Shown piece after piece: positions 23,016-38,011 of a stretch of DNA of 64,000 bases. The translations under genes and the position numbers were made by a program. The stretch is from assembly GCA_018015315.1 (NCBI GenBank), contig GCA_018015315.1_3629.1. The stretch is one strand, 5' to 3'. Under the pieces are notes generated by a model, which was not told the origin of the DNA, did no database searches, and was given only the letters and a program-made list of their open reading frames with translations. The number at the start of each line of letters is the position of its first letter. The stretch's first letter is position 1. The DNA is from a phage.

Positions 23016-26000
23016 TTAGTCGTGAGACTCGTTCCAAGGTCCCTGGAAGCTGGAGTTAGAACGACTAACAACCACAGTAGGACAGGATATTGTAATACCT
23101 GTCACGTTTGACGTTGACCACGGGGTGTAGATTTCAATAATAATGTCTATAGTCTGTTCACCTAGACCTGTTATCCCAACTGCACACATGCCATCGTTGT
23201 CGTTTCCGTACTTCTTGCCAGCAAGGAGTTGATGACCAGCTATCCACGCATTTAGTTGGGAGTTGGCACGAGTACCGTTCAGTTTAAAGAAGAATGTTAC
23301 GTTCTTACCTTGACCTGAAACGTTATCTACGTATCTCCACCTCCAACGGCAAACCCTCTGCTGGGAGTTATATACTGGAGCACAATCTCCGTAAGTCCTG
23401 TGTGCAACAATTGCACCTTCAAACTGGTTAGCACGAATAACAGAAGCTTCTACACGACCACGGAATGTACCTCCGGTTGCATCTATGGTGCCTCTAAAGC
23501 TACCATTATTGGCATAAACATCTCCACGGAAGGTACCACTAGTGGCGTTAACTGCCCCTGTGAAGTTACCAGAACTGGCGTTAATGTTGCCTTTCACCCA
23601 CACATCCATAAATTGGGCATGCCCGTTCTTGTTAATATACCAACCGTATTTATGGTACCCGTTGCCATCGTAGTTGTTTGACGAAATTTCTTGTGCAATC
23701 TTGGCAGAGGAGATCGTGCCATTCTCTATAAAAGCGTCTTTCAAGAACGCTTGGTTGTTCTTGATTGCGAAAGCAAGGGTTGCTGTTCCGTTTCCGGGGT
23801 TGTATACCGCAAAGTTGTTTGCACTAACCATGAAGTATGATTGAACTTGTCCCCCAGACCCCTCCATGCCCAGCTGGATACCTGCAACATACTTATTCCC
23901 TGCGGAGTCTACCTGTATCTTTGTTCCCCATTGAGCATTTACTTTGCCCTCTAAGTCGGTTACAGCCTTAGATGTTGTAGCTACTGCAGCTCTAAGCTCA
24001 GATACATCACCAACATCATCAATTATTTCCTGTTTAGCAACCGCAAGTTCTTGGCGAATAGCTGACGCGGTACCGTTAATAAGATCCACAGTGGCTTTAT
24101 TAGTATCAGAAATTGTAGCATCAAGTGCTGTTTTTGTGGAGGTAAGTTTCCCATCCAAGTCCTTAATTGCCTGCTTGTTGGTAGAGATCTCTCCACGGGC
24201 AGAAGTTATCTGCTCTGACAGTGCAGATGTTTTCTGATTCAATAAATCTGTGGTGGCCTTATTGGTATTAGCGATCAAAGTATTGAGATCAGTTTTTGCA
24301 GTGGTTATCTTACCATCTAACGTGGTATAGTTCTTAGATACCGTCACATTTGTCTGACTGATCTTTTGATCCAGGGTTTCAGAGGTCTTGTTCAAAAGAT
24401 CCACTGTTGCCTTGTTGGTGCTTAGGATACTTGCATCAAGCTCTGTTCTCTGAGTATTGATCTTGCCATCTAGAGTTTTATCTCCAGCAAGGTATCCGCT
24501 CTCAACACCCCCTATTTGCTCTACCAGCTCACCCTTGGCGGCAACCAATTTTTCATCTAAAGCCTCTGTCTTTTTGTTCAAAAGATCAGTAGTTGCTTTA
24601 TTGGTTGTCTCGATCAGGGATGCCAGTCTACCACTTTCAGTGTTCAGGTCGTTAGTAAACTTATTTTGTGCAGCAACAAGTTTCTTATCCAGTGCTGTAA
24701 TGTTACCATTGACATCCTCAAACTTCTGAGTTGTCTCTGTAACTACCGCGCCTATCCTATCCCCGAGTTGCTGGAATGCTTCATCTACCCTACCATCCAT
24801 GTATTTATTGAGCTCTGTGACCCGATTTTCAACCTCTTCGATAGAGGAATCTAAAGTGCTCATCAACTCTTTATAAGTTTCTGTCTTTTTAAATTCAGCA
24901 TCTATCTGAGGCATCAGATCTTCAATGGATGTATAGCAGCGTGCAGCGCATTCTACAAACTGAGAACTACCAAAAGCGTTTGTGGTTCTAATGTACCAAT
25001 AATAAATCTTATCGTTCTGCAGACCTTCAGATGTCCAAGTTGAACCAACACCCATACGCGTGGCTTTTGAAGTAACGGTTGCATCACTGGTATCTGGCAA
25101 TCTTGTCATCCCAGATGTCCAAAAGTCGTACTGGGTGCTTACACTAGCCAAGTCTCTGCTGTGCGGGATCAGGGTAATAGCAAAGTATCCCTGTTTAACC
25201 TCCACAGAAACAGGAGCTTCAGGTGCCTGAATGTTGAACTCACAATATGCTTCCGGAGATACACCACCTTTATAAGATGTTGCAACAACAGTGGCTGTGT
25301 AGAATCCTTTAGTCAGACCCTCAACACGGACAAACTGCTCAACTGTCTGTGCTGTCCAAACAATCTCTCCGTTCTTTCTTACCTGCACAATATTTTGAGC
25401 GTATGTCCCAACGTTGTCCCAAGCCAAAACACCGTGAGTTACTTCTCCAGCTTGGAGAACGGAATATCTGAAGTTTTGCGGTTGAGCTACACCAGATGGA
25501 GATATTGGAATATCTACATCGCCAGAATCCGGAAGTTGCCCTGTGGCATCATTCCACTCTTTAGCATCTTGACGAAGTTTTACCTTGACACCGCCCTTTT
25601 TAGTAAACTCCCATTCAAGAACTCTCATTTCTTGGCCCACTATACCAATACTTGGGAGGTCCATTGTAACGTAACGACCAGGTTTAAATTTGAAACCTCG
25701 CATATTGCAGGTGACTTCAATAATCCTGCCAGCTCTGGCACGTCTTAGGAAGATTGCAGAAACACGCTGAGCTTGATAAGGACTGGTAACAAAGCGATAG
25801 TCTATATCGATTATCTTTCTTTCTCCATCCTTCTCTATCCACTCTGGGACAAACACTGATGGAAAATCTGTTTCAGAATACCCTTTGGTCGGACTAGTGA
25901 ATCTGCCAGTTATTGTGTTGGATCTTTTGTCAAATGAGGCTTCCGGATAGATCTTAACCTCACCACAGACACAGTCCTCACTCAATGTCATTGTTGCCGG

Positions 26001-26855
26001 ACCATAGTATGCACCAACCAGCAAACCATACTTACCAGCAACATAACTAAGGTCTGCACCGCAAGCTTTCAGCATTTCTGCCATAATACTTGCTGGGGCC
26101 TCATCCATGTCAAACTCACCGTTAATGGTGTAACGTCGCTCACTGGTTCCGTCAGCGTTTTTTACTGCCTCGTCGCATATGTTGGCAGCCTCCTTAAAGG
26201 ACTCCCAGTTGATGGTTTCGTCAGGACATTTAAGGTACGTTCTTAAATAGTCTAGGATCACCAAGGCAGCGTTATTGGTATACACCTCTTTACTGATACG
26301 AGGATCATAGCATTTTTTACCAACCTTGACAAGTGTAACGTTTGGCAACCCAAAAGGAAACTTGTTAGGGTCAAACCTGAAGCTGGCACGTAGCCAACTG
26401 ATCCCTCTACCTATCATGTCTGGTGACCATGATGGGCAGTGTGTACCCATGAAAGGATCAGATGTTTTTCTGTCGTTATGTAGCTCCCACGATACCAGAT
26501 CTCCATACGAGGAAATAGGATTACCGTCGATAAGTATATCTTCTATACCTTCCAGAGGGTGATTGGCAAGAACAATAGCACAATGGAGGGTTCTGTCGCT
26601 ATCCTGCTCCAAAAACGCAAGCAATCCGGATGTGCGTGTCTTCCCATACACTACAGAGCAGGGTGCAGCAGAAGATCTGAGAAGCTTTTGTCTATCTTGC
26701 TGACTTCTGTAAGATTTGTTGCCCTCAAAAATCTTATCCAGAGTTCTGGTGGTAACAGTGTTCAGGCTGTCAGCCAGAGCTGCCTTGGATGCGTTCCAGT
26801 CATAACTTGAAGATCTTGCAGAAGCAACGATGTTATCAATCATTGCAATTGGCAT
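23016..26855 (-). CDS. central tail fiber / host-specificity (J-like) protein with internal tandem repeats
   Basis: 1279 aa; about five ~38-aa repeats (TNKATTDLLNKKTEALDEKL and variants) in the middle; C-terminal Gly/Asn/Thr-rich fiber-like region. Confidence 0.6.
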   Translation of the reverse strand: MPIAMIDNIVASARSSSYDWNASKAALADSLNTVTTRTLDKIFEGNKSYRSQQDRQKLLRSSAAPCSVVYGKTRTSGLLAFLEQDSDRTLHCAIVLANHPLEGIEDILIDGNPISSYGDLVSWELHNDRKTSDPFMGTHCPSWSPDMIGRGISWLRASFRFDPNKFPFGLPNVTLVKVGKKCYDPRISKEVYTNNAALVILDYLRTYLKCPDETINWESFKEAANICDEAVKNADGTSERRYTINGEFDMDEAPASIMAEMLKACGADLSYVAGKYGLLVGAYYGPATMTLSEDCVCGEVKIYPEASFDKRSNTITGRFTSPTKGYSETDFPSVFVPEWIEKDGERKIIDIDYRFVTSPYQAQRVSAIFLRRARAGRIIEVTCNMRGFKFKPGRYVTMDLPSIGIVGQEMRVLEWEFTKKGGVKVKLRQDAKEWNDATGQLPDSGDVDIPISPSGVAQPQNFRYSVLQAGEVTHGVLAWDNVGTYAQNIVQVRKNGEIVWTAQTVEQFVRVEGLTKGFYTATVVATSYKGGVSPEAYCEFNIQAPEAPVSVEVKQGYFAITLIPHSRDLASVSTQYDFWTSGMTRLPDTSDATVTSKATRMGVGSTWTSEGLQNDKIYYWYIRTTNAFGSSQFVECAARCYTSIEDLMPQIDAEFKKTETYKELMSTLDSSIEEVENRVTELNKYMDGRVDEAFQQLGDRIGAVVTETTQKFEDVNGNITALDKKLVAAQNKFTNDLNTESGRLASLIETTNKATTDLLNKKTEALDEKLVAAKGELVEQIGGVESGYLAGDKTLDGKINTQRTELDASILSTNKATVDLLNKTSETLDQKISQTNVTVSKNYTTLDGKITTAKTDLNTLIANTNKATTDLLNQKTSALSEQITSARGEISTNKQAIKDLDGKLTSTKTALDATISDTNKATVDLINGTASAIRQELAVAKQEIIDDVGDVSELRAAVATTSKAVTDLEGKVNAQWGTKIQVDSAGNKYVAGIQLGMEGSGGQVQSYFMVSANNFAVYNPGNGTATLAFAIKNNQAFLKDAFIENGTISSAKIAQEISSNNYDGNGYHKYGWYINKNGHAQFMDVWVKGNINASSGNFTGAVNATSGTFRGDVYANNGSFRGTIDATGGTFRGRVEASVIRANQFEGAIVAHRTYGDCAPVYNSQQRVCRWRWRYVDNVSGQGKNVTFFFKLNGTRANSQLNAWIAGHQLLAGKKYGNDNDGMCAVGITGLGEQTIDIIIEIYTPWSTSNVTGITISCPTVVVSRSNSSFQGPWNESHD

Positions 26856-27280
26856 TAATACCTCCAGACATCAACAACGATAGAATCTTTCATGTCGAAC
26901 ATAAAGACCCCTTTATCACCTTTCGCCCAAATCTGGTTGTTCCAGAACACACCAGCGGTGAGCCCGTTCAGACCTTCGAAAATGACAATATCTCCACGCT
27001 GAACCTGTTTAGGAGTATCCAGCCGAGTCATAAAGAGATCAAAAATAGTAGGCAGGTGTGTGGTTTTGAAACGGAGCATGCACCATCTTTTGCTTTCCAA
27101 CTCTGTTTTATACGTTCCTTCGAAGTTAGAAAGAAAATCTGTTCCGTACTGGGCATCAACACACTTAGCTGCAAAGGTGCAACAATCGTGGAATCCCCAT
27201 TCAAAAGGTATGGTGGCCTCTTCGTCAAACACTTTCCACAATCTTTCTTGCCAATCCACTAAACGAGGGTGTGTGCTCAT
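26855..27280 (-). CDS. hypothetical tail protein (possible peptidase-like fold)
   Basis: Start moved to the second ATG (MSTHPRL), which has a GGAGG RBS; HDCC and GDIVIF motifs faintly resemble NlpC/P60-type proteins. Confidence 0.45.
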   Translation of the reverse strand: MSTHPRLVDWQERLWKVFDEEATIPFEWGFHDCCTFAAKCVDAQYGTDFLSNFEGTYKTELESKRWCMLRFKTTHLPTIFDLFMTRLDTPKQVQRGDIVIFEGLNGLTAGVFWNNQIWAKGDKGVFMFDMKDSIVVDVWRY

Positions 27281-27846
27281 TAAACCTCCCAAATGATCGG
27301 GCGGCTCGCCACCTGATCCACATATTTAAAAAATCTGTCATTATCGTTTCTTGAGCTGTGGCTTTCCTCCGTGTACCTATAAGGAAAACCTCTTAACCAA
27401 CTGTTGAAGATGGAAGAGATGGATATGGACAAAGCACTATTCTCACCTGTCTGAATAGCCATATCTGTTATAAGGCCGTCAAACAAGCCATTAGTTGTAA
27501 CAGGCAGACCATTCTCCATAGCGGTAATGTACAACGTGGCACGACAACCAGAATACTCCGTCTTCAGCAGATCACCAACATACTTAGGATCAAACCCGTT
27601 CAATGTTGCTACCACAGATCCGAAGTTGGTGGCATCTTTCTCAGACACAGCAGTTAATGTTGCTGATCCACCTATCCCTATAAAATGTTGCCCCTCAATT
27701 ACTACAACACCAGTGCCTGAGCACACCCTGACAGTTCCTGTCGGTAGCTCCAGCTTTGCAGCAATTAAGATCTCAACACCATCAAGCTCCAGCTTTTCAA
27801 GAAATAAATTATCTAATGGCGCTCTGATCATCTTAGAAATCCTCAA
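27280..27846 (-). CDS. hypothetical tail protein
   Basis: 188-aa ORF; coupled to neighbours. Confidence 0.5.
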   Translation of the reverse strand: MRISKMIRAPLDNLFLEKLELDGVEILIAAKLELPTGTVRVCSGTGVVVIEGQHFIGIGGSATLTAVSEKDATNFGSVVATLNGFDPKYVGDLLKTEYSGCRATLYITAMENGLPVTTNGLFDGLITDMAIQTGENSALSISISSIFNSWLRGFPYRYTEESHSSRNDNDRFFKYVDQVASRPIIWEV

Positions 27847-28423
27847 AGAAGTTGATAACTATATTATCACCTTTTTGCATAGCATCGACTTTTTGCTTAA
27901 TTTTATAAATATCTCTGATATGAAACCTACCCTTTGGGGATTGAGTTATTATCTTCATAGTATCCCCTGCGGCAATAGGTTTCCTAAGTCTTGGAGATAT
28001 GCTTATAACAGCAGCCCCAACACCATCGCTGCGTACTGGAGCTGTTACTACTTTCAACTCATCGTTCACAGATATTTTATCACCAGCTCTGGCTATGTCT
28101 CTGTTTGGCTCCCACCCGACCGTCTTCAAAAAATCGTCGTTACCAGTAGGCCCAAGAGCGATTGGCTCATTAGCTGTTACCGAGTGACCGTAAGTTTTAA
28201 TGAGAAATATGTTCCCATCTTTATATACCTGATCAACAAAGCTCTTAAGCTCTAACAACTGTGACTCGCTGATATTGGAAACCGTCAAAGTGCCTTTCCA
28301 GTTAGGTGTGGCATAGGTTACTTTTTGCGTTTTACCTGTAAACGGACTTTTAAACGTAACAATATCTGCTAGCAGCTCCAATCTAATATCTGGAAGGTAT
28401 CTAGGCCTTTCCCATAAAAACAT
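27833..28423 (-). CDS. hypothetical tail protein
   Basis: 196-aa ORF; GGAGG RBS; preceded by a promoter-like element. Confidence 0.5.
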   Translation of the reverse strand: MFLWERPRYLPDIRLELLADIVTFKSPFTGKTQKVTYATPNWKGTLTVSNISESQLLELKSFVDQVYKDGNIFLIKTYGHSVTANEPIALGPTGNDDFLKTVGWEPNRDIARAGDKISVNDELKVVTAPVRSDGVGAAVISISPRLRKPIAAGDTMKIITQSPKGRFHIRDIYKIKQKVDAMQKGDNIVINFFEDF

Positions 28424-28454
28424 TGTGCCTCCAGGTTAAACAATCATGATAGTT

Positions 28455-28483
28455 ATTTTACCAGATTTTAAGTTAATACGCAA
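28455..28483 (-). promoter_or_regulatory. candidate extended -10 promoter
   Basis: Minus strand: TGG-TAAAAT (-10 at 28455-28460) with weak -35 TTGCGT 17 bp upstream. Confidence 0.35.
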
Positions 28484-28485
28484 TA

Positions 28486-28515
28486 TAAACAAAAAGCCCC
28501 CGCCGAAGCGAGGGC
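28486..28515 (-). terminator. rho-independent terminator after the 110-aa gene
   Basis: 8-bp stem with one G-U pair, UUCG loop, then UUUUUGUUUAU. Confidence 0.55.
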
Positions 28516-28520
28516 AATAC

Positions 28521-28853
28521 TTAAAATACTTCCAAGGTAGACGCTGGAGGGTCGAACATGTTCAATTTCATCGACTCTACAACTTTTCCGCTTTTTGAGA
28601 TAATGTTTTCTGCACCTTCGTCCAGAGTTAAAACATTAACATAAAACAATTCGCTTTTCTCACAAACAGGATAGACAACCATGTTGCCAAACTCATCTTC
28701 TGCCTCATAGGTATCTCCCGTCTCTGTGTAAACAAAGCCAGCAACCTCTACAAGAAGTGTGTTTTGCAACACCTCATTTTCGTAAAAGCCGATTTCATCC
28801 ATGAAACCGTTAAAGTCCTCCCTGTCAGTGAACCCGAGGGTAAAGGTATTCAT
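28521..28853 (-). CDS. small acidic protein (possible tailspike chaperone)
   Basis: 110 aa; ATGA-coupled to the 1479-aa gene upstream. Confidence 0.45.
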   Translation of the reverse strand: MNTFTLGFTDREDFNGFMDEIGFYENEVLQNTLLVEVAGFVYTETGDTYEAEDEFGNMVVYPVCEKSELFYVNVLTLDEGAENIISKSGKVVESMKLNMFDPPASTLEVF

Positions 28854-31800
28854 TATTCAACACTCTCCATCATAAGTTGGGTATCTGTCAGCGCAGAGTT
28901 CCAAACTCTTATGTCCTTAATATGACCAAACAAATGTCTTTCTCCTGTTGCCGTTTGACCACCGATACGGATGAAAGCTCCTCCTGCCAGGAACTCCCAA
29001 GAAGACTGTGTTTCAGTGCTCACCAGTCCGTTAGCAAAAGAGCAAGTTTTACCGTCTTCTTTTATCCTGAACCCCATCTTCAGTTTACGCGCTTTAGCCA
29101 TCTCGTAGACACGTCTGTTTGACCCTCCAATATCGCAGTATGGATACCCATCCTCTGCAATATTTGTTGCAGAACCAAACCCGAGAATAAAAGCTGCGCT
29201 CGTCTGGTGTCCTTCTGTGTCTATAACCCTAGGGGCTGCGTTAGGAGCTTTGCCCCAACCTCTCCAGTTAGCATCCACAGTAGCGGCGATAGTGAACGGT
29301 CTAGGTGCTAAGTTATCCGTCATCGGGAATTTGCAAAGGTCTGCCGCTCTAGTTACAGGTGAAGATCCTGTGGGAATAAACGAGGACTCGCAAGAACCTA
29401 ACTCAAATTGAGGTATTGCAACATCAACCCAATCCCCTACAACATGCTGAGCACCTTCAGGTGGAGAAATCTGGAACTGGCACCCGATATTCTTGTCAGA
29501 GGCCACTGCCTCAAACGTAGCGGCAATCCTTACCCAAGCAGGTCCGGCTGTTTGCCATCTCTCAGCTTTTACTTTAATTCTCCCAGCTGCACCACCTGTT
29601 GTTTTAACTTCAAGTGTTGACAGGTTAACATAAGCGTCACCTTGGAATACTGTGGTGGATCCGTCATACATGTCGAATCTTACACGTAATCTCTGGTTCG
29701 CTTTACCTCCCCTTGCAATAATAGACCCAGTACAGAATTTCTCAGCACCTGTCACATCGGCACCTCTGGTGGCTGGAACTGTAGCAAGGTTTAACGCTGT
29801 TGTTTCCACACCGGATGCAGTGTTTACTGTAAATCTTGCACCTTTTGTGCCGTTGGTGTTTGTTACAGTACCACCAACAGTAATCTGTTGACTGGCTCCC
29901 CACTTGCTAGGATCTTCACTGTTGAGCATCAGGTTTGTCCTTTGCCCTTCAATGAGCAAACCATCTCTTTCGAAACGAGGTTGGTTAGCCTGTGCAACAA
30001 CCATAACACCACGTTTAGTGAAATAGGTCGCTGTAGACGGTCTGGAGAACACCATCTCACCTTCACCTAATACAGGTTTCAGGTTAGAAGTCAAAGGCAA
30101 CCACAAGTCAGGCATCACCGGAGCAGTTGTGCTTTCTGGGAAGCTTGTTCTCTTCCACTGGCTCCAAGCCATTCCGTTTCCAATGTTATTGTAATACCTT
30201 TCCCATGTTCCGCCAAGATACATCTTGTAGATCTGGATACAACCAGTGCCTTCGTTAGCAGAGTTTCTCAGCACGATCAGTGTGCCAGCCATCTGCTGTC
30301 CCGGCGGGTAGTTTCTTTCCGCTGTGGCGTTGGCATTTGCCTCTTGATGGTAAATACCTTCACGATCTGCCTTGTAATCGTTAAGGTTGTTAGTTCCCAA
30401 TCCTTGACCACGGTGCTGAATAACCTTGTTCCACGCTCTGTGGTTTCCCTGCTCTATGGAACGGGTATACAACTGGTCTAAACGACCTGCGATCTGGAAG
30501 GCATAGTTTCCAGAGAATGCCACAGACAACCCACCAACAACCATCGAACCTTCAGGTCCGTTGACATTGCCAGCCATTATTTTGGACGGGTTATTGTTGC
30601 CGAACTGGTTGTTCCAGTCAGCCCCTGTGTGGCATACAAAACCACCAGGTGCAGAGAAAGTGCCGTCTTTGTTGAAGTTATAGAATCTATGAGCAGAACC
30701 TACAACATCACGAACAATAACTTGACCCGCTTCTGGAGTAGATCTAAACTCCGCTTGACCTTTGAGATCAGCACCATTACCACATTTAGAGGTAAACGTA
30801 CCGTTAGTTAGATCCTCTGTTCCATCCGATGCACACTGGAATCCTGCATTAGAGAATAACGCCTTTCTAGGACTTCCGTAGCACAGATAGTCAATACCGT
30901 CTGCCCAGAGCTCAACTTTAGGCATGTTCATTTTGCTCATCACCGCATAGCGTTCAGCTGAGCCTATATAGTGCCACTGTGTGCCACCACCAGTGTAGAA
31001 TCCAGAGGTACCTTTGAAGTCAACAATAGGTCTGGTGTTGGTATTGTTATCTCCAAGAACAGCAAGATTCAAATCTGCCGACTGGAGAGGTGCAACAAAC
31101 TTAACCCCGTCCTGATTGTTTGTTACAGAACCAACCTGGTAGTCTTGTTCTTTGGTAAACACCTCTAAAACATTTCTACTTGCGTATATGCTGACAGGGA
31201 AAGCACGCGCCTCTGCATAGAAAGCAACATATTCTTGTTTACCCCTTGTTGGAGCAACCATCCCAAGAATTGCTTTTTCATTCTGGTAGAAATTTACTAC
31301 TCCGTAGAAAGAGTCCCCTCTATCTGTCCACCCACCAGTTCTATAATGACACTGTAAGGTAGCACAGTTCATGGGGTCACCACCAGATGACGACCTAGTA
31401 ACTATGGTAATATCGGTGCCAGTAGCTGGAGCATAATACGGATCTGTTCTAACTATAATTGGGTAGTATTTCCCATCTTCCATCCCTGCGGTTCTTGGCA
31501 GCGTTAAGAAATCTTTTACGCCTGCAGCTATAGGAACTCTAAACAGATTCTGAGCCTCTGCCAAAGTTGTAGCCCCAGTACCACCTGCGGCTTGCGGTAA
31601 AGGTTCCCACTTGGCCTTCCGGTTGTTATAAACACCCCATTCCAGAGTGCCGTTACCGGATTCATCCATCCCGCCATCCCAGATGACCATCTTGGCGGCT
31701 TTCTTGGATCCCCAGAAGCCTCTTTCTGCTCCTGAACTACGGATCCACTCTCCGAGTCCCCAGTTTGTCAGCTGACCAGTAAGATCCCCAACCTGCATGT

Positions 31801-33292
31801 ATTTAGGGCAGTCTAGCACGCCGTCTTCGCGGAAACCTAAATATCTATGGGTTTCAGATCCTTTTGCACCTTTGTGCAGGTGGATTGTCAACCAAGCCTT
31901 ATTGTCGTTTCTTACCTCAGAATAGATCCTATAACCATGCTCAAGAACACCATCAGTATTATATTTATCTCCATGGAGAATACCTGAGGCAGATTTAACA
32001 TCTCCAGAGTATTGAGCTAAGTAAAGGTGCCCGAAGGCTGGTGAGTTGTTTTTACCAAGGCCGATATGAGATCTGAAGGTATCATCGTTACGAGGTCTGA
32101 CCATCGGCTGCCATGCAGTCCACTGATTTGTGTTGGCCTGATAGGTTCTCAAATACCAAACATCTACGTTAGAGAATGGATAGTATTCCTGACGACAACC
32201 TGCACCGCCGTTAGCATTGTTCTGCCAAACAATCAGGTGACCAGCACCAGAACCTGCTGGGTAACCATTTGCCTCGGTGGCATTGGCAGTCATGGGCTGG
32301 TAGTATACACCATCCTGATTGCCAGTCAAATTGTTAATATTGAAATTTGCCTCAAGGGCTGCACGTTGTTTATAAAAAGTTCCTAAATTAATACGTGCAC
32401 CTGCGGCATCTCTGGCACCTGTACCACCTTGCTCTATAGCAAGAGGTTGCCATGAAGATGTCTGTTGGTTCCACATGCCCCAACGACCTGTTGCATCAAG
32501 CTGCAAGTACCCGGCTGTGTTTACATCATCACCAGCACGAATAACGGTTCTTGTTGGGCTGTTTGCCTCTAGGCGTTTAAATTCATCACGAAGTGCTATT
32601 CTTTTTGTTGTTGCTACACCGTTGGTTACTGCAATGGTGTACATAGCTCCGGAGGTAGCGCCACGGAAAATACCATCAACAGTTGTAGTATCACGACGAG
32701 ATACCACACCGTTCAGGAATTTTTCACCAGCTGCTACAGAAGGGTAGTTAGTAGTTCTTCCCTCTTCAATAACTGCAGGGCCAACAAAATTGACAAGGTG
32801 AATAACATCGCCTACAGTGTGCACGGTACCAAAATCTACCCGCTGTGCAAGTGCTTTAGCATCGTTGGCGGTCTTAACTGTAACATCCATTACATCCTGG
32901 ACAGACTGGCCTTCAGCTGTCATAATCATGGATGCGCCAATAGTTGATTCCAGCTCCTCTCTTAATGATGGATCTGTATATACCATCCATGCAGCATCAG
33001 TAATCCCACCATCGGAGTACGGTGAAGATAGTGCAGGAACGGTGTGCGGAAATTCGCCTTTCCAACGCAGGTAGAGGTCTTCCTCTTCGAAGTAGGCAAA
33101 ATCCATTGGGCCGTTTAACTTACCACCTTCCTTAAAGGAGATTACATGAGAAACAGTCCCATCCACATGGACAACATCGCCAATTTTTACACGACGGGTC
33201 AGGTCTGGTTGTTGAACAACCAGGTAATCATCCTCTGTCACTGCGGTAGTGGCAGGAAGAGATTCAATTCTGACAACTTTAATATCAGCCAT
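28853..33292 (-). CDS. large tailspike / tail fiber protein (1479 aa)
   Basis: N-terminal ~100 aa homologous to the 222-aa protein at 35927..36595 (DDYLVVQQPDLTRRVKIGDVV / FKEGGKLNGPMDFAY); long Gly/Thr/Asn-rich body. Confidence 0.65.
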   Translation of the reverse strand: MADIKVVRIESLPATTAVTEDDYLVVQQPDLTRRVKIGDVVHVDGTVSHVISFKEGGKLNGPMDFAYFEEEDLYLRWKGEFPHTVPALSSPYSDGGITDAAWMVYTDPSLREELESTIGASMIMTAEGQSVQDVMDVTVKTANDAKALAQRVDFGTVHTVGDVIHLVNFVGPAVIEEGRTTNYPSVAAGEKFLNGVVSRRDTTTVDGIFRGATSGAMYTIAVTNGVATTKRIALRDEFKRLEANSPTRTVIRAGDDVNTAGYLQLDATGRWGMWNQQTSSWQPLAIEQGGTGARDAAGARINLGTFYKQRAALEANFNINNLTGNQDGVYYQPMTANATEANGYPAGSGAGHLIVWQNNANGGAGCRQEYYPFSNVDVWYLRTYQANTNQWTAWQPMVRPRNDDTFRSHIGLGKNNSPAFGHLYLAQYSGDVKSASGILHGDKYNTDGVLEHGYRIYSEVRNDNKAWLTIHLHKGAKGSETHRYLGFREDGVLDCPKYMQVGDLTGQLTNWGLGEWIRSSGAERGFWGSKKAAKMVIWDGGMDESGNGTLEWGVYNNRKAKWEPLPQAAGGTGATTLAEAQNLFRVPIAAGVKDFLTLPRTAGMEDGKYYPIIVRTDPYYAPATGTDITIVTRSSSGGDPMNCATLQCHYRTGGWTDRGDSFYGVVNFYQNEKAILGMVAPTRGKQEYVAFYAEARAFPVSIYASRNVLEVFTKEQDYQVGSVTNNQDGVKFVAPLQSADLNLAVLGDNNTNTRPIVDFKGTSGFYTGGGTQWHYIGSAERYAVMSKMNMPKVELWADGIDYLCYGSPRKALFSNAGFQCASDGTEDLTNGTFTSKCGNGADLKGQAEFRSTPEAGQVIVRDVVGSAHRFYNFNKDGTFSAPGGFVCHTGADWNNQFGNNNPSKIMAGNVNGPEGSMVVGGLSVAFSGNYAFQIAGRLDQLYTRSIEQGNHRAWNKVIQHRGQGLGTNNLNDYKADREGIYHQEANANATAERNYPPGQQMAGTLIVLRNSANEGTGCIQIYKMYLGGTWERYYNNIGNGMAWSQWKRTSFPESTTAPVMPDLWLPLTSNLKPVLGEGEMVFSRPSTATYFTKRGVMVVAQANQPRFERDGLLIEGQRTNLMLNSEDPSKWGASQQITVGGTVTNTNGTKGARFTVNTASGVETTALNLATVPATRGADVTGAEKFCTGSIIARGGKANQRLRVRFDMYDGSTTVFQGDAYVNLSTLEVKTTGGAAGRIKVKAERWQTAGPAWVRIAATFEAVASDKNIGCQFQISPPEGAQHVVGDWVDVAIPQFELGSCESSFIPTGSSPVTRAADLCKFPMTDNLAPRPFTIAATVDANWRGWGKAPNAAPRVIDTEGHQTSAAFILGFGSATNIAEDGYPYCDIGGSNRRVYEMAKARKLKMGFRIKEDGKTCSFANGLVSTETQSSWEFLAGGAFIRIGGQTATGERHLFGHIKDIRVWNSALTDTQLMMESVE

Positions 33293-33327
33293 TCTTTCTC
33301 CTGAAAGGGGGCAAACAGCCCCCTATG

Positions 33328-35925
33328 TTAAAGGTACAATCCACGGTATTGAGCATAAAGGCCCAGACCGCGAAGGATTTCGCCAGAGTGATAGCCCACC
33401 GGATCAGAAACTGCCCAGCAGCCGTTTAAAACATTATCCCCATTGATGAAGTGGTGCTTTTGCAGTAGCTTCATACAGGCTTCTACAACAATGTCTATTT
33501 GAGGTATTGTCTCTGAATACCCGCACAGACCTAGCCAGCAGCAACCTGCAAGCCATTCACCTACCACCCACATCCTGTCCCCTCTGTCTTGATAAGAATA
33601 TCCCCCAGAGGTGTTAAAGTCTGTAGGCAGATTTCCTGAATGAGATGACTGGAATCTGTTGAGGAACCATGCCCATTTCTGGCAGAACAGGAATAATCTT
33701 TCATCAACAGGTTCTTTATGTTTCTTGAGCTCATAGATTGTGCGGCACGCAGCAACAAAAGATCTTGACTGGAGCTTAGAGTTATCTACCATCTCCCACC
33801 AACCAGTCAGCCCTTCATTACCTCTCTGCCATACATAACGCGAGGCAACTGGACCCTCTGTCTTAAATGTATTATTATACCAGACTTGAGCGTCATACAG
33901 AAAGCCTATTGTATTTGACAATCTATGGCGATCTATGTTTTCTGCACCCATGCAGTATACTGCTGGGTATTGCATGCCAGGGTAGGGCCAATTTGGCTTT
34001 TCCTCTAAGAGATAGTTTTCCTTATCTATCACCTTTCCGGCAGGGAACACACCTGGTGTGTGCCTGTATGCACCTTGCTTGTAGTTTCTGACATAGCAAT
34101 CACCAACCTTAGCGGTTGATTCTGTCTTGCTTGCCATCCATACGCTAAACCATATTAGATAAGCATCCCTATCTGCAATATAGAACTGCGGCAGCGTGTT
34201 TACGCAGTACAGATCAAACAAGCCATTACCTATCTGCCTGTCGCTTAGGCTGAAATCTACAGAGGTGAGCCCCTTAGGATTAGCAAAGAAAGGTTTAATC
34301 TCTTCTTCGGTGTGATGAGGTTGTGTCGGATCTAGTTTGAAATCTCCTAGAGTAAGAGTTTCTGTTATCCATTGTCCATTAGTGGCATATAGATCAGCAT
34401 ACCATAACCACCTATCTTTGTCAAGAAATTTGACCCTTACCATCTCATCATCTGATCGATAAGTTACTGAGTTTAAAGAAATCTCTCTCCCAAAATTGAA
34501 AGTTACTTTACCTCTTGCTATATTACAACGGGTGAAGTTGTCAGAGTGGTTGTAAATGTCGGTATCATACTGCATACTAACACTAGCGCCACCGCTTACG
34601 ACAATGTTTTCCTCTTTAGGTAAGAGATACGGATTACCGTCTTTACCAACTACCTCTACGAAATCAGTAACCTTGGCAACTATTTCTGTTACCTCTGCCC
34701 CTCCAAAAGGAACCCCTATCCTGTACTGTTTTTTGTTATTGTTGCCATCATTAAGGATGAAATGTGGCTGGAACAGAACCCCTTCTCCTCCGAAATTCAT
34801 AACAATTTCAGCATCTCTGCCTATTTTGTATGTAGTCCCTTTTTGAATTATTTCGCAAGGCTGGCGTGCGTTCATTCTAAAATTGATATACCCGTCACTG
34901 TCCCTGCTCATGGCAGGAACTGTTCCTGCAACAAGGCAAGTACCATCTGTAAACGGTGCCTTAATCAACGTGGTCTTCCTAAACAGTTTGTCGTAGGCGT
35001 TTATATCACTGAAATTAAGCAATTTGTTGTAAGACTGTTTAAACGCGGTGTAATACTTTTCCTCACCTGTCAAGGTGTAGAGTTGATAACAAGCGTCACA
35101 CCACATTTCTTCCCCGTCCAACTCTGGGGCCTGATTATCTGCAACCACGTTTATAGGATTTACAATTACAGGGGATCCTGCAGGTATCACCGATCCGCCC
35201 TGCTCTTGAGGTAATCTTACACAATAGGTCACCTTGTGGCTGCCTGTAACACCCTTATCTTGTAATTGGATTGTGCCGAACTCTACAGACGTATGACCAC
35301 TGTCGGCTATGCTACCGTTAGCCCAATAGCGGTTACCATCCCATGCTATGTACCACTCAACCCACCAACTTAATCCGGATGTTGTCCAATCTGGGTTAGC
35401 ATCTGTGCCACCGTAAACATCAGAGTCTACAGTGTTTCTTCCTAACACACCGTTATACGCTTGGAATGCCTTGTCAAGGTATTCCCCCCATGTCGGAGAT
35501 CCAGCTGGGATTTTTCCTCTACCGTTGGTAAAAGACACCACCACATCTTTAAACCCACCATGTGATGGAACCCCATCTGTGGATAGAGGGTAGTGGGACA
35601 ATCTTTGCATTTTACTTTCTACTGCATATGCACCCAGAAGATGGCTATTGTAAGCTTCCCAAGCATCTTTTGCCCTATCCAGATAGAAATCGCTTTTCGA
35701 TGCCCTGTATGCTTCAATGTATCCCAGAATCAACACAGCTTGGGACTCATGCATTGCCCAATCATTATTTATCTTATTACCTGCCCACCCTGCAGCTATA
35801 AGACCATCAGGGTTTACTAGCTTATTTTGTGTAGAGGTGTTGGTAATACCTGTGTTGTTATCGAGGCACTTCCTGTGCCCCTCAATCATCTGAAATACGT
35901 TATCAATGTTATGTTGAATACGCAT
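33328..35925 (-). CDS. virion-associated putative glycoside hydrolase / depolymerase
   Basis: 865 aa, rich in aromatic residues; lacks the shared N-terminal anchor domain; coupled 1 nt after the 222-aa gene. Confidence 0.5.
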   Translation of the reverse strand: MRIQHNIDNVFQMIEGHRKCLDNNTGITNTSTQNKLVNPDGLIAAGWAGNKINNDWAMHESQAVLILGYIEAYRASKSDFYLDRAKDAWEAYNSHLLGAYAVESKMQRLSHYPLSTDGVPSHGGFKDVVVSFTNGRGKIPAGSPTWGEYLDKAFQAYNGVLGRNTVDSDVYGGTDANPDWTTSGLSWWVEWYIAWDGNRYWANGSIADSGHTSVEFGTIQLQDKGVTGSHKVTYCVRLPQEQGGSVIPAGSPVIVNPINVVADNQAPELDGEEMWCDACYQLYTLTGEEKYYTAFKQSYNKLLNFSDINAYDKLFRKTTLIKAPFTDGTCLVAGTVPAMSRDSDGYINFRMNARQPCEIIQKGTTYKIGRDAEIVMNFGGEGVLFQPHFILNDGNNNKKQYRIGVPFGGAEVTEIVAKVTDFVEVVGKDGNPYLLPKEENIVVSGGASVSMQYDTDIYNHSDNFTRCNIARGKVTFNFGREISLNSVTYRSDDEMVRVKFLDKDRWLWYADLYATNGQWITETLTLGDFKLDPTQPHHTEEEIKPFFANPKGLTSVDFSLSDRQIGNGLFDLYCVNTLPQFYIADRDAYLIWFSVWMASKTESTAKVGDCYVRNYKQGAYRHTPGVFPAGKVIDKENYLLEEKPNWPYPGMQYPAVYCMGAENIDRHRLSNTIGFLYDAQVWYNNTFKTEGPVASRYVWQRGNEGLTGWWEMVDNSKLQSRSFVAACRTIYELKKHKEPVDERLFLFCQKWAWFLNRFQSSHSGNLPTDFNTSGGYSYQDRGDRMWVVGEWLAGCCWLGLCGYSETIPQIDIVVEACMKLLQKHHFINGDNVLNGCWAVSDPVGYHSGEILRGLGLYAQYRGLYL

Positions 35926-35926
35926 C

Positions 35927-36595
35927 TTAGATAGCTCCTGCGATAATCAGTGCCCCGTACCAAGTTAACCCGTTGTCGTAGGTTTCCAACTTGAAAATAT
36001 CTGTTGCACCAGCTGTAAATGTTAGGATAGGATCTCTTCCGTAGGACCATTTAACATTACCAGGCCAATAGACTTTGTTGCCGCCAGAGGTCTGAGTAAT
36101 GCATACGGTTATAGTTCTCGCCACCCCTTCAAGACCTTCTGTTTGATTTTCAAAAGAGATTGTGGTATTTGAAGTTAGTCGAACCTTAAAGGTATCCGCA
36201 ACTTCAAGATCCATATCAAGCTGACCACCGATAGATCCGTAATCAACTATTCTGCCAGAAGAAGTTGCAGCAAGCTCACCAAAAACAGACCAGGCATTTG
36301 CAGACACGCCCCCAGCACCCTCTACGGTGGAGTCTGGGAGGATTATTTTAGGATAATCCCCGTTCCACGTGTAGTAGCGCTTAGTCTCTGGGTCATAAGC
36401 AAAGTCCTTCTTGCTCTTAAGATAACCACCCTCTGTGAAATAGACTATCTTAGTAATACTAAGATCGTTGACAACATCGTCAATCTTAGCCTTTCTTGTC
36501 CCATCAGTCTGGTTGACAACCAAGAAGTCATCACTCAGGACTGTTTCTGCATCTTCAAGATCTGGAATTGGTATTGTAGGATAAGCTACAGCCAT
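35927..36595 (-). CDS. tailspike N-terminal anchor-domain protein
   Basis: 222 aa; N-terminus homologous to that of the 1479-aa tailspike. Confidence 0.55.
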   Translation of the reverse strand: MAVAYPTIPIPDLEDAETVLSDDFLVVNQTDGTRKAKIDDVVNDLSITKIVYFTEGGYLKSKKDFAYDPETKRYYTWNGDYPKIILPDSTVEGAGGVSANAWSVFGELAATSSGRIVDYGSIGGQLDMDLEVADTFKVRLTSNTTISFENQTEGLEGVARTITVCITQTSGGNKVYWPGNVKWSYGRDPILTFTAGATDIFKLETYDNGLTWYGALIIAGAI

Positions 36596-36604
36596 GATTT
36601 CTCC

Positions 36605-37321
36605 TTAGTTAACATCAATAGCACGACCAGACTGGTTGGCAATAGCCTCATCATTGGAGGTAGCAATAACACCAGAGTATTCGCGCTCATCTGGAGCAAG
36701 CGTCCAGGTATTGCGGTTAATGGTTTGTTCTGCCTCAGTCATCAGCAGATCTTTATCCTGAGTCAACAGAGAGCCTACAGGGATCGGGTTTTCCATCTCA
36801 GGGCCAGCATACTGGTTCCACCATGTGGCATCTCCTGTTCTAGGCAATCTGAAGTTGATCAGATAGTACAGTTTATTAGCCCACTTAATCCAACCCTCAT
36901 CATCACAGAGAGAGGTTGTCCCAGAATCAGGCTGTGGGTAGGTGAACTGATCAAGACCTACGAAAGCCAGCCTTACAATCTCGTTCTCTTTGGTAACAAC
37001 CTCAAAGAACGCTTGGTATGTTCTCGATCTTCGATCCATGGTAGACTGGAAGTTTATGATGTTTAGCACATCCGGCTCTTGTCTTGCCACTTCCATGATC
37101 TTGTTATCAAGAACAGTCTTCATGACCTTCTTACTGAGAAAGTCCATATAAGGGAAGCCAAACAACTCGTCAAAGTACCAGCTCCCCTTCCACGTATTAA
37201 ACCTCATCCACAAGCGCTGGCGCAGACTTACCTGGTTTGAATCTATCAACTCAAGACCTTTGTCTATCGCCAAATCGCCTGTCTGTGGGTCCATCAATAT
37301 ATCACTATAAAGCGTAGCCAT
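36605..37321 (-). CDS. baseplate wedge protein (gp25/GPW-like N-terminal domain)
   Basis: 238 aa; N-terminal GDLAIDKG...LRQRLWMRFNTWKGSWYFDELFGFPY resembles the GPW/gp25 family signature. Confidence 0.55.
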   Translation of the reverse strand: MATLYSDILMDPQTGDLAIDKGLELIDSNQVSLRQRLWMRFNTWKGSWYFDELFGFPYMDFLSKKVMKTVLDNKIMEVARQEPDVLNIINFQSTMDRRSRTYQAFFEVVTKENEIVRLAFVGLDQFTYPQPDSGTTSLCDDEGWIKWANKLYYLINFRLPRTGDATWWNQYAGPEMENPIPVGSLLTQDKDLLMTEAEQTINRNTWTLAPDEREYSGVIATSNDEAIANQSGRAIDVN

Positions 37322-37333
37322 GAAAGCCCTCTA

Positions 37334-38011
37334 TTAGTGCGGTCCACTTGTCTCGCCATCAGGGCAAGAGTGGGTATGACCTTTATATTCTGCATAGAAT
37401 GAATCCAAATCCACGCCAGCAGCAGTTATAATTCTACCAGATGGGTCTATTGTAGCACCATTCATTCTGATATTTCCATCCACAGCAGCTCGCAAATTGG
37501 CAGCACCGTTAGTGAAAGAGAACTCTCCGCTGCTGTCGCACCGTAATGTCCCACCAGGTGTTTGAAGCTCAAAATCACCAGAAGGTGTCAGTTTAAAATA
37601 AACCCTATCATTCCATAACTCTACGTTATCAGGATCGATCTGTAAAGCGTTTGAGTCTGAATGAACAGAGGTGATTGCCCACCCAGGAAACAGGCCGTGA
37701 GTTTGTTGATCATCGTTATTGTTTTCATTTCTCTCTGAAAACTGCAATCCTACAACATCTCCAGCCTTAATAGGAAGTGTTAACCTTGCCTTTCCGCTGT
37801 TTGCAGACATCACCTGAATTGGAACGTCATAGATAAGAGGGTATCTCTCCACATCCCCGTCATCAAACGTGGTTTCAGCAATTGGCTGCACGGCTGCAGA
37901 AGGGATACTGTAGTCTACACTGACAACTCTGGCCCTGATACTGGTGTGGTAGTCCCTCATTATTTTTTCTATGAAGGATCTTACAGCAGCATCTTTCCTA
38001 TTTATTGCCAT
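37334..38011 (-). CDS. putative baseplate central spike protein
   Basis: 225 aa; position in the baseplate block; C-terminal HTHSCPDGETSGPH suggests a metal-binding apex. Confidence 0.45.
   Translation of the reverse strand: MAINRKDAAVRSFIEKIMRDYHTSIRARVVSVDYSIPSAAVQPIAETTFDDGDVERYPLIYDVPIQVMSANSGKARLTLPIKAGDVVGLQFSERNENNNDDQQTHGLFPGWAITSVHSDSNALQIDPDNVELWNDRVYFKLTPSGDFELQTPGGTLRCDSSGEFSFTNGAANLRAAVDGNIRMNGATIDPSGRIITAAGVDLDSFYAEYKGHTHSCPDGETSGPH

Follow-up and report, generated by a model that had tools for sequence, protein, structure and literature searches.

In K1E/K1-5/SP6-type phages the cargo is a trimeric spike that docks by an N-terminal peptide of its own, and Klebsiella phages have reportedly been modelled (Latka et al. 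2019) with a first protein that combines an anchor and a branching domain and a second that is an anchor-less depolymerase; the branching domains of these systems are said to be T4 gp10-like and the depolymerases to be beta-helices. The head of tailspike TSP1 of phage CBA120 docks on an XD domain of TSP4, and gp9, CpaA and StcE are published homologues of the TSP4 XD1 domain (PMC8825819). Phage rV5 virions contain gp41, gp42 and gp43, all found by mass spectrometry, and the N-terminus of gp43 was likened to that of the P22 tailspike (PMC3606486). The LL12 paper aligns LL12 gp42 with phi92 gp141, the BASEL paper calls the gene-to-fibre assignment unclear, RBPseg cryo-EM placed three fibres only, and the 2026 cryo-EM study of phi92 gave no assignment for fibre II and left gp141 out of account. 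The rV5, LL12, BASEL and 2026 phi92 papers draw no link between the small and the large protein as one unit; the genes are already known, and the portable cassette that they form appears undescribed.

The window, a stretch of 64,000 nucleotides analysed over its whole length, derives from an rV5-like E. coli phage of the genus Vequintavirus (97.8% identity to phage LL12). Its minus strand carries the gene block of Table 1, for which a preliminary description had given coordinates and genes that all proved correct in an ORF check. The reading preferred here, at a probability of roughly 0.6, is a 'split tailspike', in which the 222-aa protein serves as adapter on the virion for an enzymatic cargo encoded by a gene of its own, the 865-aa protein.

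Table 1. Features of the adapter, cargo and fibre gene block, in window coordinates.
Feature	Position	Strand	Basis
222-aa gene, proposed adapter; rV5 gp43 orthologue	35927..36595	-	ORF
222-aa N-terminal peptide, residues 1-45	36461..36595	-	profile of 9 N-termini
222-aa Tail_spike_N (PF18668), residues about 46-105	36281..36460	-	Pfam + phmmer vs PDB sequences
222-aa C-terminal beta-sandwich, residues 112-222; putative docking site of the 865-aa protein	35930..36262	-	
865-aa six-hairpin glycosidase-like virion protein gene; rV5 gp42 / phi92 gp141 orthologue	33328..35925	-	
Small G+C hairpin GGGGGC-TGTTT-GCCCCC, then TTT	33307..33323	-	read from sequence
1479-aa lateral tail fibre gene; LL12-type allele of rV5 gp41	28853..33292	-	ORF + PHROG
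Fibre N-terminal anchor region, residues 1-105 (N-peptide + Tail_spike_N)	32978..33292	-	BLASTP, Pfam
110-aa ORF, phrog_1361 (unknown function), PHROG E=2.1e-25	28521..28853	-	ORF
Terminator-like hairpin GCCCTCGC-TTCG-GCGGGGGC, then TTTTTGTTT	28496..28515	-	consensus scan

The 222-aa and 865-aa genes meet at ...GCAGGAGCTATCTAA G ATG..., with the 865-aa ORF starting 1 nt past the 222-aa stop, which is the spacing previously claimed, and the AGGAG of the 865-aa gene lying within the 3' end of the 222-aa gene. The 1-nt spacing and a ribosome-binding site that lies within the upstream gene mark the pair as translationally coupled. A fused or frameshifted reading of the pair was rejected, the junctions in all 12 loci sampled below being ordinary coupling overlaps. 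In the 35 nt that separate the 865-aa gene from the 1479-aa gene lies a small G+C hairpin, directly 5' of the AGGAGA ribosome-binding site of the fibre gene; the terminator scan did not call this hairpin, its T-run being too short. The 110-aa ORF, the final gene of the block, overlaps the fibre stop by 1 nt and possibly, at a guess, encodes a fibre assembly factor; the hairpin that closes the 222-865-1479-110 block has 8 pairs, 7 of them G-C.

The 222-aa and 1479-aa proteins share their N-terminal ~100 residues (residues 8-105 and 7-105, respectively; BLASTP 38% identity, 55% positives, 1 gap, E=3e-18), and both match Tail_spike_N (PF18668, the TSP1/Gp66 N-terminal domain) above its gathering score of 25 bits (residues 51-105 of the 222-aa protein, 41.0 bits, E=2.1e-10; residues 46-103 of the 1479-aa protein, 40.4 bits, E=3.2e-10). 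When either N-terminus was compared by phmmer with all 294 six-frame window ORFs of at least 60 aa, it retrieved only its counterpart (E about 1e-17 to 1e-18, the runner-up at E>0.5), and a profile of the first ~45 residues, made from 9 sequences of 4 phage groups, picked out the same two proteins alone (E 4e-21 and 1e-20, the third match at E 0.14); neither search of the window ORFs found a third with the anchor domain. The similarity is therefore far beyond chance and confined to the two proteins. A common N-terminal domain had been claimed in the preliminary description, and BLASTP, Pfam and phmmer show the homology clearly. In both proteins Tail_spike_N is N-terminal (residues about 46-105), and orthologues of both are virion-borne in rV5. 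The N-peptide (consensus ..I.I.DLP.......D.LVV.Q.D.TRK......) also heads bas60_0024 and bas60_0027 of a phi92-like phage, Seunavirus ORF42 and ORF40, and gp70, gp71 and gp72 of phiEa104. The anchor is duplicated between adapter and large fibre or spike in Seunavirus (ORF42/ORF40, E=4e-22 to the 222-aa N-terminus), and likewise in phi92-like phages. Among PDB sequences, the 222-aa N-domain matched by phmmer the N-terminal regions of several solved phage tail or tailspike proteins, and fibre residues 50-160 matched 9occ_G, 9d84, 9lna, 4qnl and 4oj5; we take 4qnl ('Tail fiber protein') to be G7C gp63.1, and others among the entries matching the 222-aa N-domain are presumably CBA120 TSP1/3/4. The first ~105 residues of the proposed adapter and the N-terminus of the 1479-aa fibre are best read as old paralogues.

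The 1479-aa protein is covered by phrog_6578 'tail fiber protein' (residues 1-1164) and phrog_1419 'tail protein' (residues 1078-1474), and has a weak, sub-threshold Laminin_G_3 match at its C-terminus (Pfam). Its matches to PDB sequences end at about residue 160, and BLASTP self-comparison gave no significant internal repeats. The term 'giant tailspike' used for it in the preliminary description is unsupported, as no beta-helix family or solved tailspike body was matched in searches of Pfam and PDB sequences; its sequence suggests a fibre that bears knob-like modules and ends in a lectin-like part, rather than a tailspike of the classical kind. The LL12 paper describes the LL12-type fibre allele as without the S74 chaperone domain of rV5 gp41. 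Two knob-like modules were noticed by eye only.

About 119 Vequintavirus records carry the 222-aa protein at 96% identity or more, and its relatives are annotated 'sialidase domain protein' or 'tail fiber protein'. Both domains are retained in the Seunavirus orthologue, with 41.8% identity across the whole protein and 47% across the N-terminal ~105 residues, and the C-domain of the small proteins has 10 invariant residues across families. The alignments were shallow because word-index homologue searches gave few relatives (4, 6 and 10 matches); in the AF2 model from the 10-sequence alignment the N-terminal half has pLDDT below 35 and is unusable, and the C-terminal part is a single sandwich domain at which the chain ends. 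Foldseek neighbours of this C-domain are the Pa223 capsid spike (prob 0.99) and Solidus gp83 (0.93), and further structural neighbours are the CBA120 TSP4 N-terminal region, gp9, CpaA and StcE; going by the model, those of the C-domain (Pa223 spike, Solidus gp83, TSP4-N, gp9, CpaA) are virion attachment modules. XD2/XD3 jellyroll domains were found neither in the model nor in Pfam and PDB-sequence searches for gp10-like domains, Phage_T7_tail (PF03906) was not found by Pfam, and a profile of the small-protein alignment matched nothing meaningful among PDB sequences.

The 865-aa protein has the (alpha/alpha)6 barrel of the six-hairpin glycosidase fold, with a large beta-rich insertion (about residues 329-613), and its chain opens directly with the first helix of the barrel. 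No anchor/head or Tail_spike_N was found in it by Pfam or phmmer, in line with the earlier claim that it lacks the shared domain, and its designation as a putative glycosidase is borne out at the level of the fold. Its sequence does not place it in a defined GH family: Pfam gave no match at E<=0.01, phmmer found no PDB sequence at E<=1, and its identity to each of the listed structural neighbours is at most 14% (8-13% in the top ten). E60, D270 and E849, each at least 90% conserved among 22 homologues, sit at helix N-termini in the model. Virion proteomics had been proposed as a check, and the rV5 orthologue gp42 is indeed detected in virions by mass spectrometry (PMC3606486). During adsorption the protein probably attaches to, or cleaves, a conserved surface glycan. 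The BASEL paper mentions an ECA-deacetylase fibre; the 865-aa protein was rejected in this role, the N4 gp65-like protein being a 690-aa ORF at 18650-20722.

Searches of 50,697 phage records by tblastn found the C-domain alone (~110 residues) in 526 and the 865-aa protein in 525. The counts per genus (C-domain/865-aa) are Escherichia 240/243, Salmonella 101/101, Vibrio 60/62, Erwinia 33/33, Campylobacter 23/23, Cronobacter 12/12, Aeromonas 7/7 and Klebsiella 6/6. Comparison of these counts, in total and by genus, indicates that the C-domain and the 865-aa family co-occur almost one-to-one, in practically the same ~525 genomes. The small gene is directly upstream of the large gene (gap -8 to +3 nt) in all of the 12 loci sampled from 11 distinct lineages: Vequintavirus, Seunavirus, phi92-like phages, Kolesnikvirus, Rosemountvirus, jumbo phages SPN3US and JP4, a 157-kb Vibrio phage, Aghbyvirus podoviruses (both ISAO8 and Kaonashi), Grimontviridae and TacPo2. 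All 12 large proteins are colinear from residue 1 and without an anchor; the small proteins have only the C-domain in common, and their lineage-specific N-termini represent at least four solutions (Tail_spike_N, bare N-peptide, T7 fibre domain, and unrelated non-homologous N-termini). The pair of the T7-like podovirus ISAO8 occupies the T7 gp17 position, between internal core genes and the holin and terminase genes, and the N-terminus of ISAO8 gp38 is Phage_T7_tail (PF03906, E=1e-8, 35.4 bits, cut-off 25.2); since the 222-aa protein lacks this domain, the anchor is exchangeable. ISAO8, SPN3US, Rosemountvirus and GAP52 keep the C-domain and have no protein with a Tail_spike_N-type head, the sole constant partner of the C-domain being the 865-aa family. 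Virion proteomics of phage S144 detected gp16 (21 kDa) and gp17 (111 kDa), which, from their sizes and from the genus-mate ZCSE2, would be the cassette pair. Co-occurrence, adjacency and swapped N-terminal anchors thus support the two-part tailspike proposed in the preliminary description.

A mirror-tree comparison of C-domain and cargo identities in the 11 lineages (Mantel r=0.15, p=0.12) was uninformative because the domain is short and its divergence saturated. The cargo has a ~270-residue N-terminal extension in four cluster representatives (P0035, P0046, P0043 and P0073), in which no separate C-domain gene was found upstream; the weak hhalign match of the extension to the C-domain (P=0.0034, probability under 10%; reversed control P=0.5) is suggestive only of a fused C-domain of the Rosetta-stone kind. 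P0076 (293 aa) joins the first ~205 residues of the cargo to a clear C-domain (E=2.6e-20), and was set aside as evidence of fusion, coming from a 1.3-kb metagenome contig that may be an assembly chimera.

In the mechanism proposed, the N-terminal ~105 residues of the adapter would insert at the periphery of the baseplate, in a site like the one that the fibre uses, and its C-terminal ~110-residue beta-sandwich would hold the anchor-less 865-aa protein. The gene pair would move between phage families as one cassette, with only the adapter N-terminus being exchanged, fitting the tail of the recipient. We infer the docking through the C-domain, the adapter's baseplate attachment site and oligomeric state, and catalysis by the cargo. 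The 1479-aa fibre and the 865-aa protein may use paralogous anchors at separate sites and need not sit on one branched structure.

The same beta-sandwich fold binds surface glycan in CpaA and StcE, as would be expected if the 222-aa protein were a complete short spike or lectin with a glycan-binding C-domain, the 865-aa protein being attached otherwise and the genes linked by a shared substrate. This is unlikely: the cargo is a virion protein yet has no recognisable anchor in any of the 12 loci, the ISAO8 pair fills a single fibre slot with the tail-binding domain in the small protein only, and one-to-one abutting or overlapping genes across unrelated families exceed the linkage usual for a shared substrate. 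Very unlikely is a 222-aa protein that branches the 1479-aa fibre and not the 865-aa protein, the fibre head docking on the C-domain, even though CBA120 heads with a Tail_spike_N-type domain bind XD domains of another tailspike (PMC8825819), the 222-aa C-domain resembles TSP4-N, and fibre II of phi92 is joined to the base of fibre I (2026 phi92 cryo-EM). The C-domain is kept in many phages without this head, with the 865-aa family as its only constant partner, and if the adapter N-terminus is the same head, both would be expected on the same kind of site and not on each other.

Tail-fibre assembly proteins are often encoded beside large fibre genes, and the 222-aa gene is small and adjoins such genes; together with the poorly defined N-terminal half of its AF2 model, this could suit a chaperone or scaffold that helps to assemble the 865-aa protein, or the decaying remains of a duplicated fibre-gene 5' end, in place of a working structural adapter. 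Either is still less probable, given the presence of gp43 in purified rV5 virions (PMC3606486), the strong conservation among Vequintavirus genomes, the retention of both domains in Seunavirus and the constraint on the C-domain evident from its invariant residues.

Phages of the rV5-/phi92-like type owe their use in therapy and biocontrol to a broad host range, and the adapter-cargo pair offers a concrete assignment for two of their virion proteins. For the engineering of receptor-binding modules, an exchangeable anchor of this small size, re-fitted in nature in at least four ways, is of direct use, and the 865-aa family, predicted to be enzymatic, would add a six-hairpin, non-beta-helix class of enzyme to the glycan-active proteins carried by virions. 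More tentatively, and with some doubt, the C-domain and the six-hairpin protein might form a universal plug-in cassette, that is, a barrel-type, probably non-trimeric glycan enzyme on a short adapter that is adapted only in its N-terminus to the kind of tail at hand (myovirus baseplate, T7-like tail, neck/head of others). If so, it would be the sole receptor-binding device of Aghbyvirus podophages and would account for the unassigned fibre II or 'arm' density in phi92- and rV5-like virions.

Among known systems, phi92 gp140/gp141 and rV5 gp43/gp42 are orthologous to the 222-/865-aa pair of the window, and bas60_0024 (157 aa) and bas60_0025 (958 aa) of a phi92-like phage represent this cassette at the corresponding genomic position, behind the sheath-initiator gene; unlike the 222-aa protein, the phi92-type adapter has only a ~40-residue N-peptide, without Tail_spike_N. 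In TSP1-4 of CBA120 (Kuttervirus) and in T4 gp9/gp10, as proposed for the adapter, a particle-proximal beta-sandwich protein carries other receptor-binding proteins; the Tail_spike_N of the window is part of the 'head' region of the CBA120 tailspikes, and the 222-aa C-domain resembles TSP4-N and gp9. However, CBA120 TSP4 and TSP2 are full tailspikes whose XD2/XD3 jellyrolls bind trimeric heads, whereas the 222-aa protein has one sandwich domain, without XD2/XD3 or a catalytic body, and its presumed cargo, unlike the CBA120 partners, has no head and is a six-hairpin barrel, not a beta-helix trimer. In G7C, likewise, a tail-anchored protein (gp66) carries a second, enzymatic protein (gp63.1; PMC8825819), but the arrangement is reversed: the domain-bearing gp63.1 is the cargo on XD3 of gp66, itself a long fibre or spike unlike the 222-aa protein, whereas here the small domain-bearing protein is the proposed carrier. 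The K1E/K1-5/SP6-type systems similarly use a short tail-anchored scaffold to hold an enzyme from another gene, and the Aghbyvirus small protein bears the attachment domain of the T7 fibre; the 865-aa cargo, unlike theirs, begins directly at the first helix of its barrel. The anchor-branch concept of the Klebsiella phages resembles the pairing of an adapter with an anchor-less enzyme.

By megablast, the region 28400-37400 matched 124 phage records. Escherichia phage LL12 ranks first, with 97.8% identity at 100% coverage, ahead of numerous rV5-like Vequintavirus genomes; the phage of the window is itself ordinary. The region is a tail and baseplate module with every gene on the minus strand (table below), in which the 222-aa, 865-aa and 1479-aa proteins are, by synteny and size, rV5 gp43, gp42 and gp41, respectively. 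The gp41 allele is of the LL12 type and lacks the S74 chaperone domain present in rV5 gp41. The end of the block of 222-aa, 865-aa, 1479-aa and 110-aa genes is marked by a strong terminator-like hairpin. A second hairpin, in the spacer between the 865-aa and 1479-aa genes, was not called by a terminator scan, and could attenuate read-through or stabilise upstream mRNA. Within this myovirus baseplate cluster lies a lambda-type tail-tip set, whose 1279-aa gpJ-like member has Ig_J, Ig_J_second and Phage_Tail_Tip domains. The 690-aa fibre protein contains Calx-beta, NCTSP_N and 'non-contractile tail sheath protein TIM barrel' (PF23845, E=5e-80) domains; it is the N4 gp65-like protein of the window, of the kind linked to ECA recognition in the BASEL paper, and the 865-aa protein was thereby ruled out for that identity.

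Tail and baseplate features of the window, in transcription order
Feature	Coordinates	Strand	Remarks
Tape measure protein	40398-42734	-	first of the genes listed
Tube initiator, plug, hub		-	between tape measure and central spike
Central spike	37334-38011	-	Pfam N-terminal domain of phage spike protein
gp25-like protein, 238 aa	36605-37321	-	directly before the 222-aa gene
222-aa gene	35927-36595	-	after the gp25-like gene
865-aa gene	33328-35925	-	after the 222-aa gene
G+C hairpin	33307-33323	-	GGGGGC-TGTTT-GCCCCC, then TTT; in 35-nt spacer
1479-aa gene	28853-33292	-	after the 865-aa gene
110-aa gene		-	after the 1479-aa gene
Terminator-like hairpin	28496-28515	-	8 pairs, 7 G-C, then TTTTTGTTT; directly 3' of the 110-aa ORF
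Lambda-type tail-tip set	23016-28423	-	196 aa, 188 aa, 145-aa DUF6950 protein, 1279-aa gpJ-like protein
Baseplate_J protein	21420-22910	-	after the lambda-type set
Fibre protein, 690 aa	18650-20722	-	N4 gp65-like

The N-terminal domain that the preliminary description had assigned to both the 222-aa and the 1479-aa proteins was borne out: it spans ~99 residues at 38% identity (E=3e-18), both N-termini match Pfam Tail_spike_N above threshold, and among the 294 six-frame ORFs of the window each matches only the other. It has two parts, a ~45-residue N-peptide (..I.I.DLP.......D.LVV.Q.D.TRK...) whose profile alone matches only these two proteins within the window, and the Tail_spike_N domain. Also as described, a sequence search found the 865-aa protein to be without this anchor, and its gene starts 1 nt past the 222-aa stop. 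The AGGAG of this gene lies within the upstream gene, and the two genes are predicted to be translationally coupled. Anchors are duplicated in other phages as well: in Seunavirus EspYZU15 the N-domain is common (48% identity) to the putative adapter ORF42 and the 712-aa ORF40, annotated as colanic-acid-degrading, in phi92-like PaulScherrer the N-peptide is common to the putative adapter bas60_0024 and the 624-aa fibre bas60_0027, and in phiEa104 it heads three consecutive fibre genes. Identity of the 222-aa N-domain is higher with its Seunavirus orthologue (47%) than with the paralogue in the window itself (38%), and thus the duplication is old, with both copies kept.

In the 1479-aa fibre, two knob-like modules (NNL...Y.Q.ANAT.A.NYP...AG.LIV..N.AN...GC.Q.Y) and two 'W.PL...GGTGA' collar motifs were recognized by eye (residues about 283-400, 562-585 and 968-1050); internal repeats were not significant by BLASTP self-comparison. 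Its C-terminal ~400 residues belong to a separate PHROG (1419), with a weak match to a ConA-like lectin domain.

Distant phages match only the C-terminal half of the 222-aa protein by tblastn. Residues 112-222 alone (the C-domain) matched 526 phage records and the 865-aa protein 525, with near-identical counts per genus (Escherichia 240/243, Salmonella 101/101, Vibrio 60/62, Erwinia 33/33, Campylobacter 23/23, Cronobacter 12/12, Aeromonas 7/7, Klebsiella 6/6). Eleven extra loci from ten lineages other than that of the window were compared: phi92-like PaulScherrer, jumbo phages SPN3US and JP4, Erwinia Kolesnikvirus phiEa104, Rosemountvirus IntR, a 157-kb Vibrio phage, T7-like Aghbyvirus ISAO8 and Kaonashi, Seunavirus EspYZU15, Grimontviridae GAP52 and Pantoea phage TacPo2. 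In all eleven, the homologue of the 865-aa protein (916-1157 aa) is directly preceded by a 156-277-aa gene, the two being separated by -8 to +3 nt. The small proteins have only their last ~105 residues in common, including ten invariant positions (L140, Q168, G171, W177, W183, L191, D199, G209, W212 and G214 in window numbering). Their N-termini consist of N-peptide plus Tail_spike_N in rV5-like and Seunavirus phages, N-peptide only in phi92-like phages, unrelated segments with no detectable domain in several other lineages, and the T7 tail-fibre attachment domain in ISAO8 (PF03906, E=1e-8, above cut-off). The T7 gp17 position, with internal core genes on one side and holin/terminase genes on the other, is where the pair lies in ISAO8 and Kaonashi. 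All the large proteins align colinearly from their first residue onwards, and in no compared locus does one carry an anchor. A constant C-domain behind variable N-termini, beside an anchor-less large protein, would be expected of a small protein that acts as a virion-binding adapter and contacts the large protein through its C-domain.

About 23 'Campylobacter phage' records (host C. jejuni; MG065635-MG065690, including H4-H6, H20, H21, H28 and H31) share 94-100% identity with E. coli rV5-like phages in this region, and the 53-kb 'Listeria phage' record PP583539 resembles Rosemountvirus; mislabelling or contamination probably accounts for these entries. Two 300-aa proteins (P0015 and P0016) on a 5.37-Mb K. 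pneumoniae contig have the same C-domain behind a different N-terminus with Pfam PF26209, and the cassette may therefore also be present in integrated elements such as prophages.

Within its family the rV5-type 865-aa protein stands apart as an outlier: it shares 26-37% identity with every other member compared (L003-L013), and those members are 32-77% identical among themselves (at least 41% when the Vibrio phage is left out). It is shorter by 50-290 residues and has lost the otherwise conserved segments 'NNRHFI...QPNGDATTEGQS' and 'GQPIPDTP..W..NW..NGKEP'. A 1512-aa homologue with a ~270-residue N-terminal extension is part of a bacterial chromosome (1.26-Mb contig, L014 5001-9539, GCA_024764835.1). 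Cellulose-synthase (bcs) and PNAG (pga) genes lie on either side of it, IS elements flank it and the neighbourhood is free of phage genes; this setting could hint at exopolysaccharide as the family substrate. On a 1.3-kb metagenome contig (L017 323-1204), the 293-aa P0076 joins the first ~205 residues of the large family to the C-domain (E=2.6e-20), and represents either a genuine fusion of both partners or a chimeric assembly. The fusion (Rosetta-stone) test of the pair, the P0076 lead and the mirror-tree test were dead ends.

By structural matching the C-domain of the 222-aa protein is likely XD1/gp9-like, and no more than likely because the match scores were modest; three of the kinds of protein matched, gp9, CpaA and StcE, are those already published as structural relatives of XD1 in CBA120 TSP4 (PMC8825819, Table 2). 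The phi92 cryo-EM authors independently likened gp140 to the Pa223 head spike. A PDB profile search with the small-protein alignment gave no meaningful match, and in the predicted model of the 222-aa protein the N-terminal part was too poor to be of use.

The two-part tailspike of the preliminary description supposes that the 865-aa protein is in virions, and its rV5 orthologue gp42 was indeed detected there by proteomics, together with gp41 and gp43 (PMC3606486). From their sizes and the cassette in genus-mate ZCSE2, we infer that virion proteins gp16/gp17 of S144 are the same pair. Virion detection, together with strong conservation, contradicts the reading of the small protein as a chaperone or gene remnant. 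That it carries the 1479-aa fibre instead is unlikely, because the only constant companion of the C-domain is the 865-aa family. An autonomous lectin-like spike, linked to the enzyme by function only, is plausible, for the same fold also binds glycans and XD1 is termed a spacer in TSP4, but it would explain neither the route of an anchor-less protein to the virion nor the arrangement in ISAO8.

As an adapter, the small protein, probably trimeric by analogy with other proteins bearing such anchors, would use its N-peptide and Tail_spike_N region to plug into the periphery of the baseplate, and its C-terminal sandwich to hold the six-hairpin 865-aa protein, while the paralogous anchor would place the neighbouring fibre at a like site; transcription of the four-gene block would stop at the hairpin that follows it. 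For the cargo, binding or cleavage of a conserved surface glycan is most likely, since its conservation within the genus is 96% or more, in contrast to the strong allelic variation reported for the gp41 gene (BASEL).

The cassette genes themselves are already known and annotated, and the resemblance of the gp43 N-terminus to that of the P22 tailspike was published in 2013 (PMC3606486). The cassette proteins were left unplaced by the 2021 BASEL, 2025 RBPseg and 2026 phi92 papers, and an account of the pair as one unit whose anchors can be exchanged was not found in the literature searched, coverage of which was incomplete. The concept is like the adapter or branched receptor-binding systems of CBA120 (TSP1-4), G7C (gp66/gp63.1) and T4 (gp9/gp10), and like the scaffold and endosialidase of K1E/K1-5. 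Unlike the gp10-type family, the putative adapter here has neither XD2/XD3 domains nor a catalytic body, and its putative cargo has no head and would be a barrel-type enzyme, not a beta-helix trimer.
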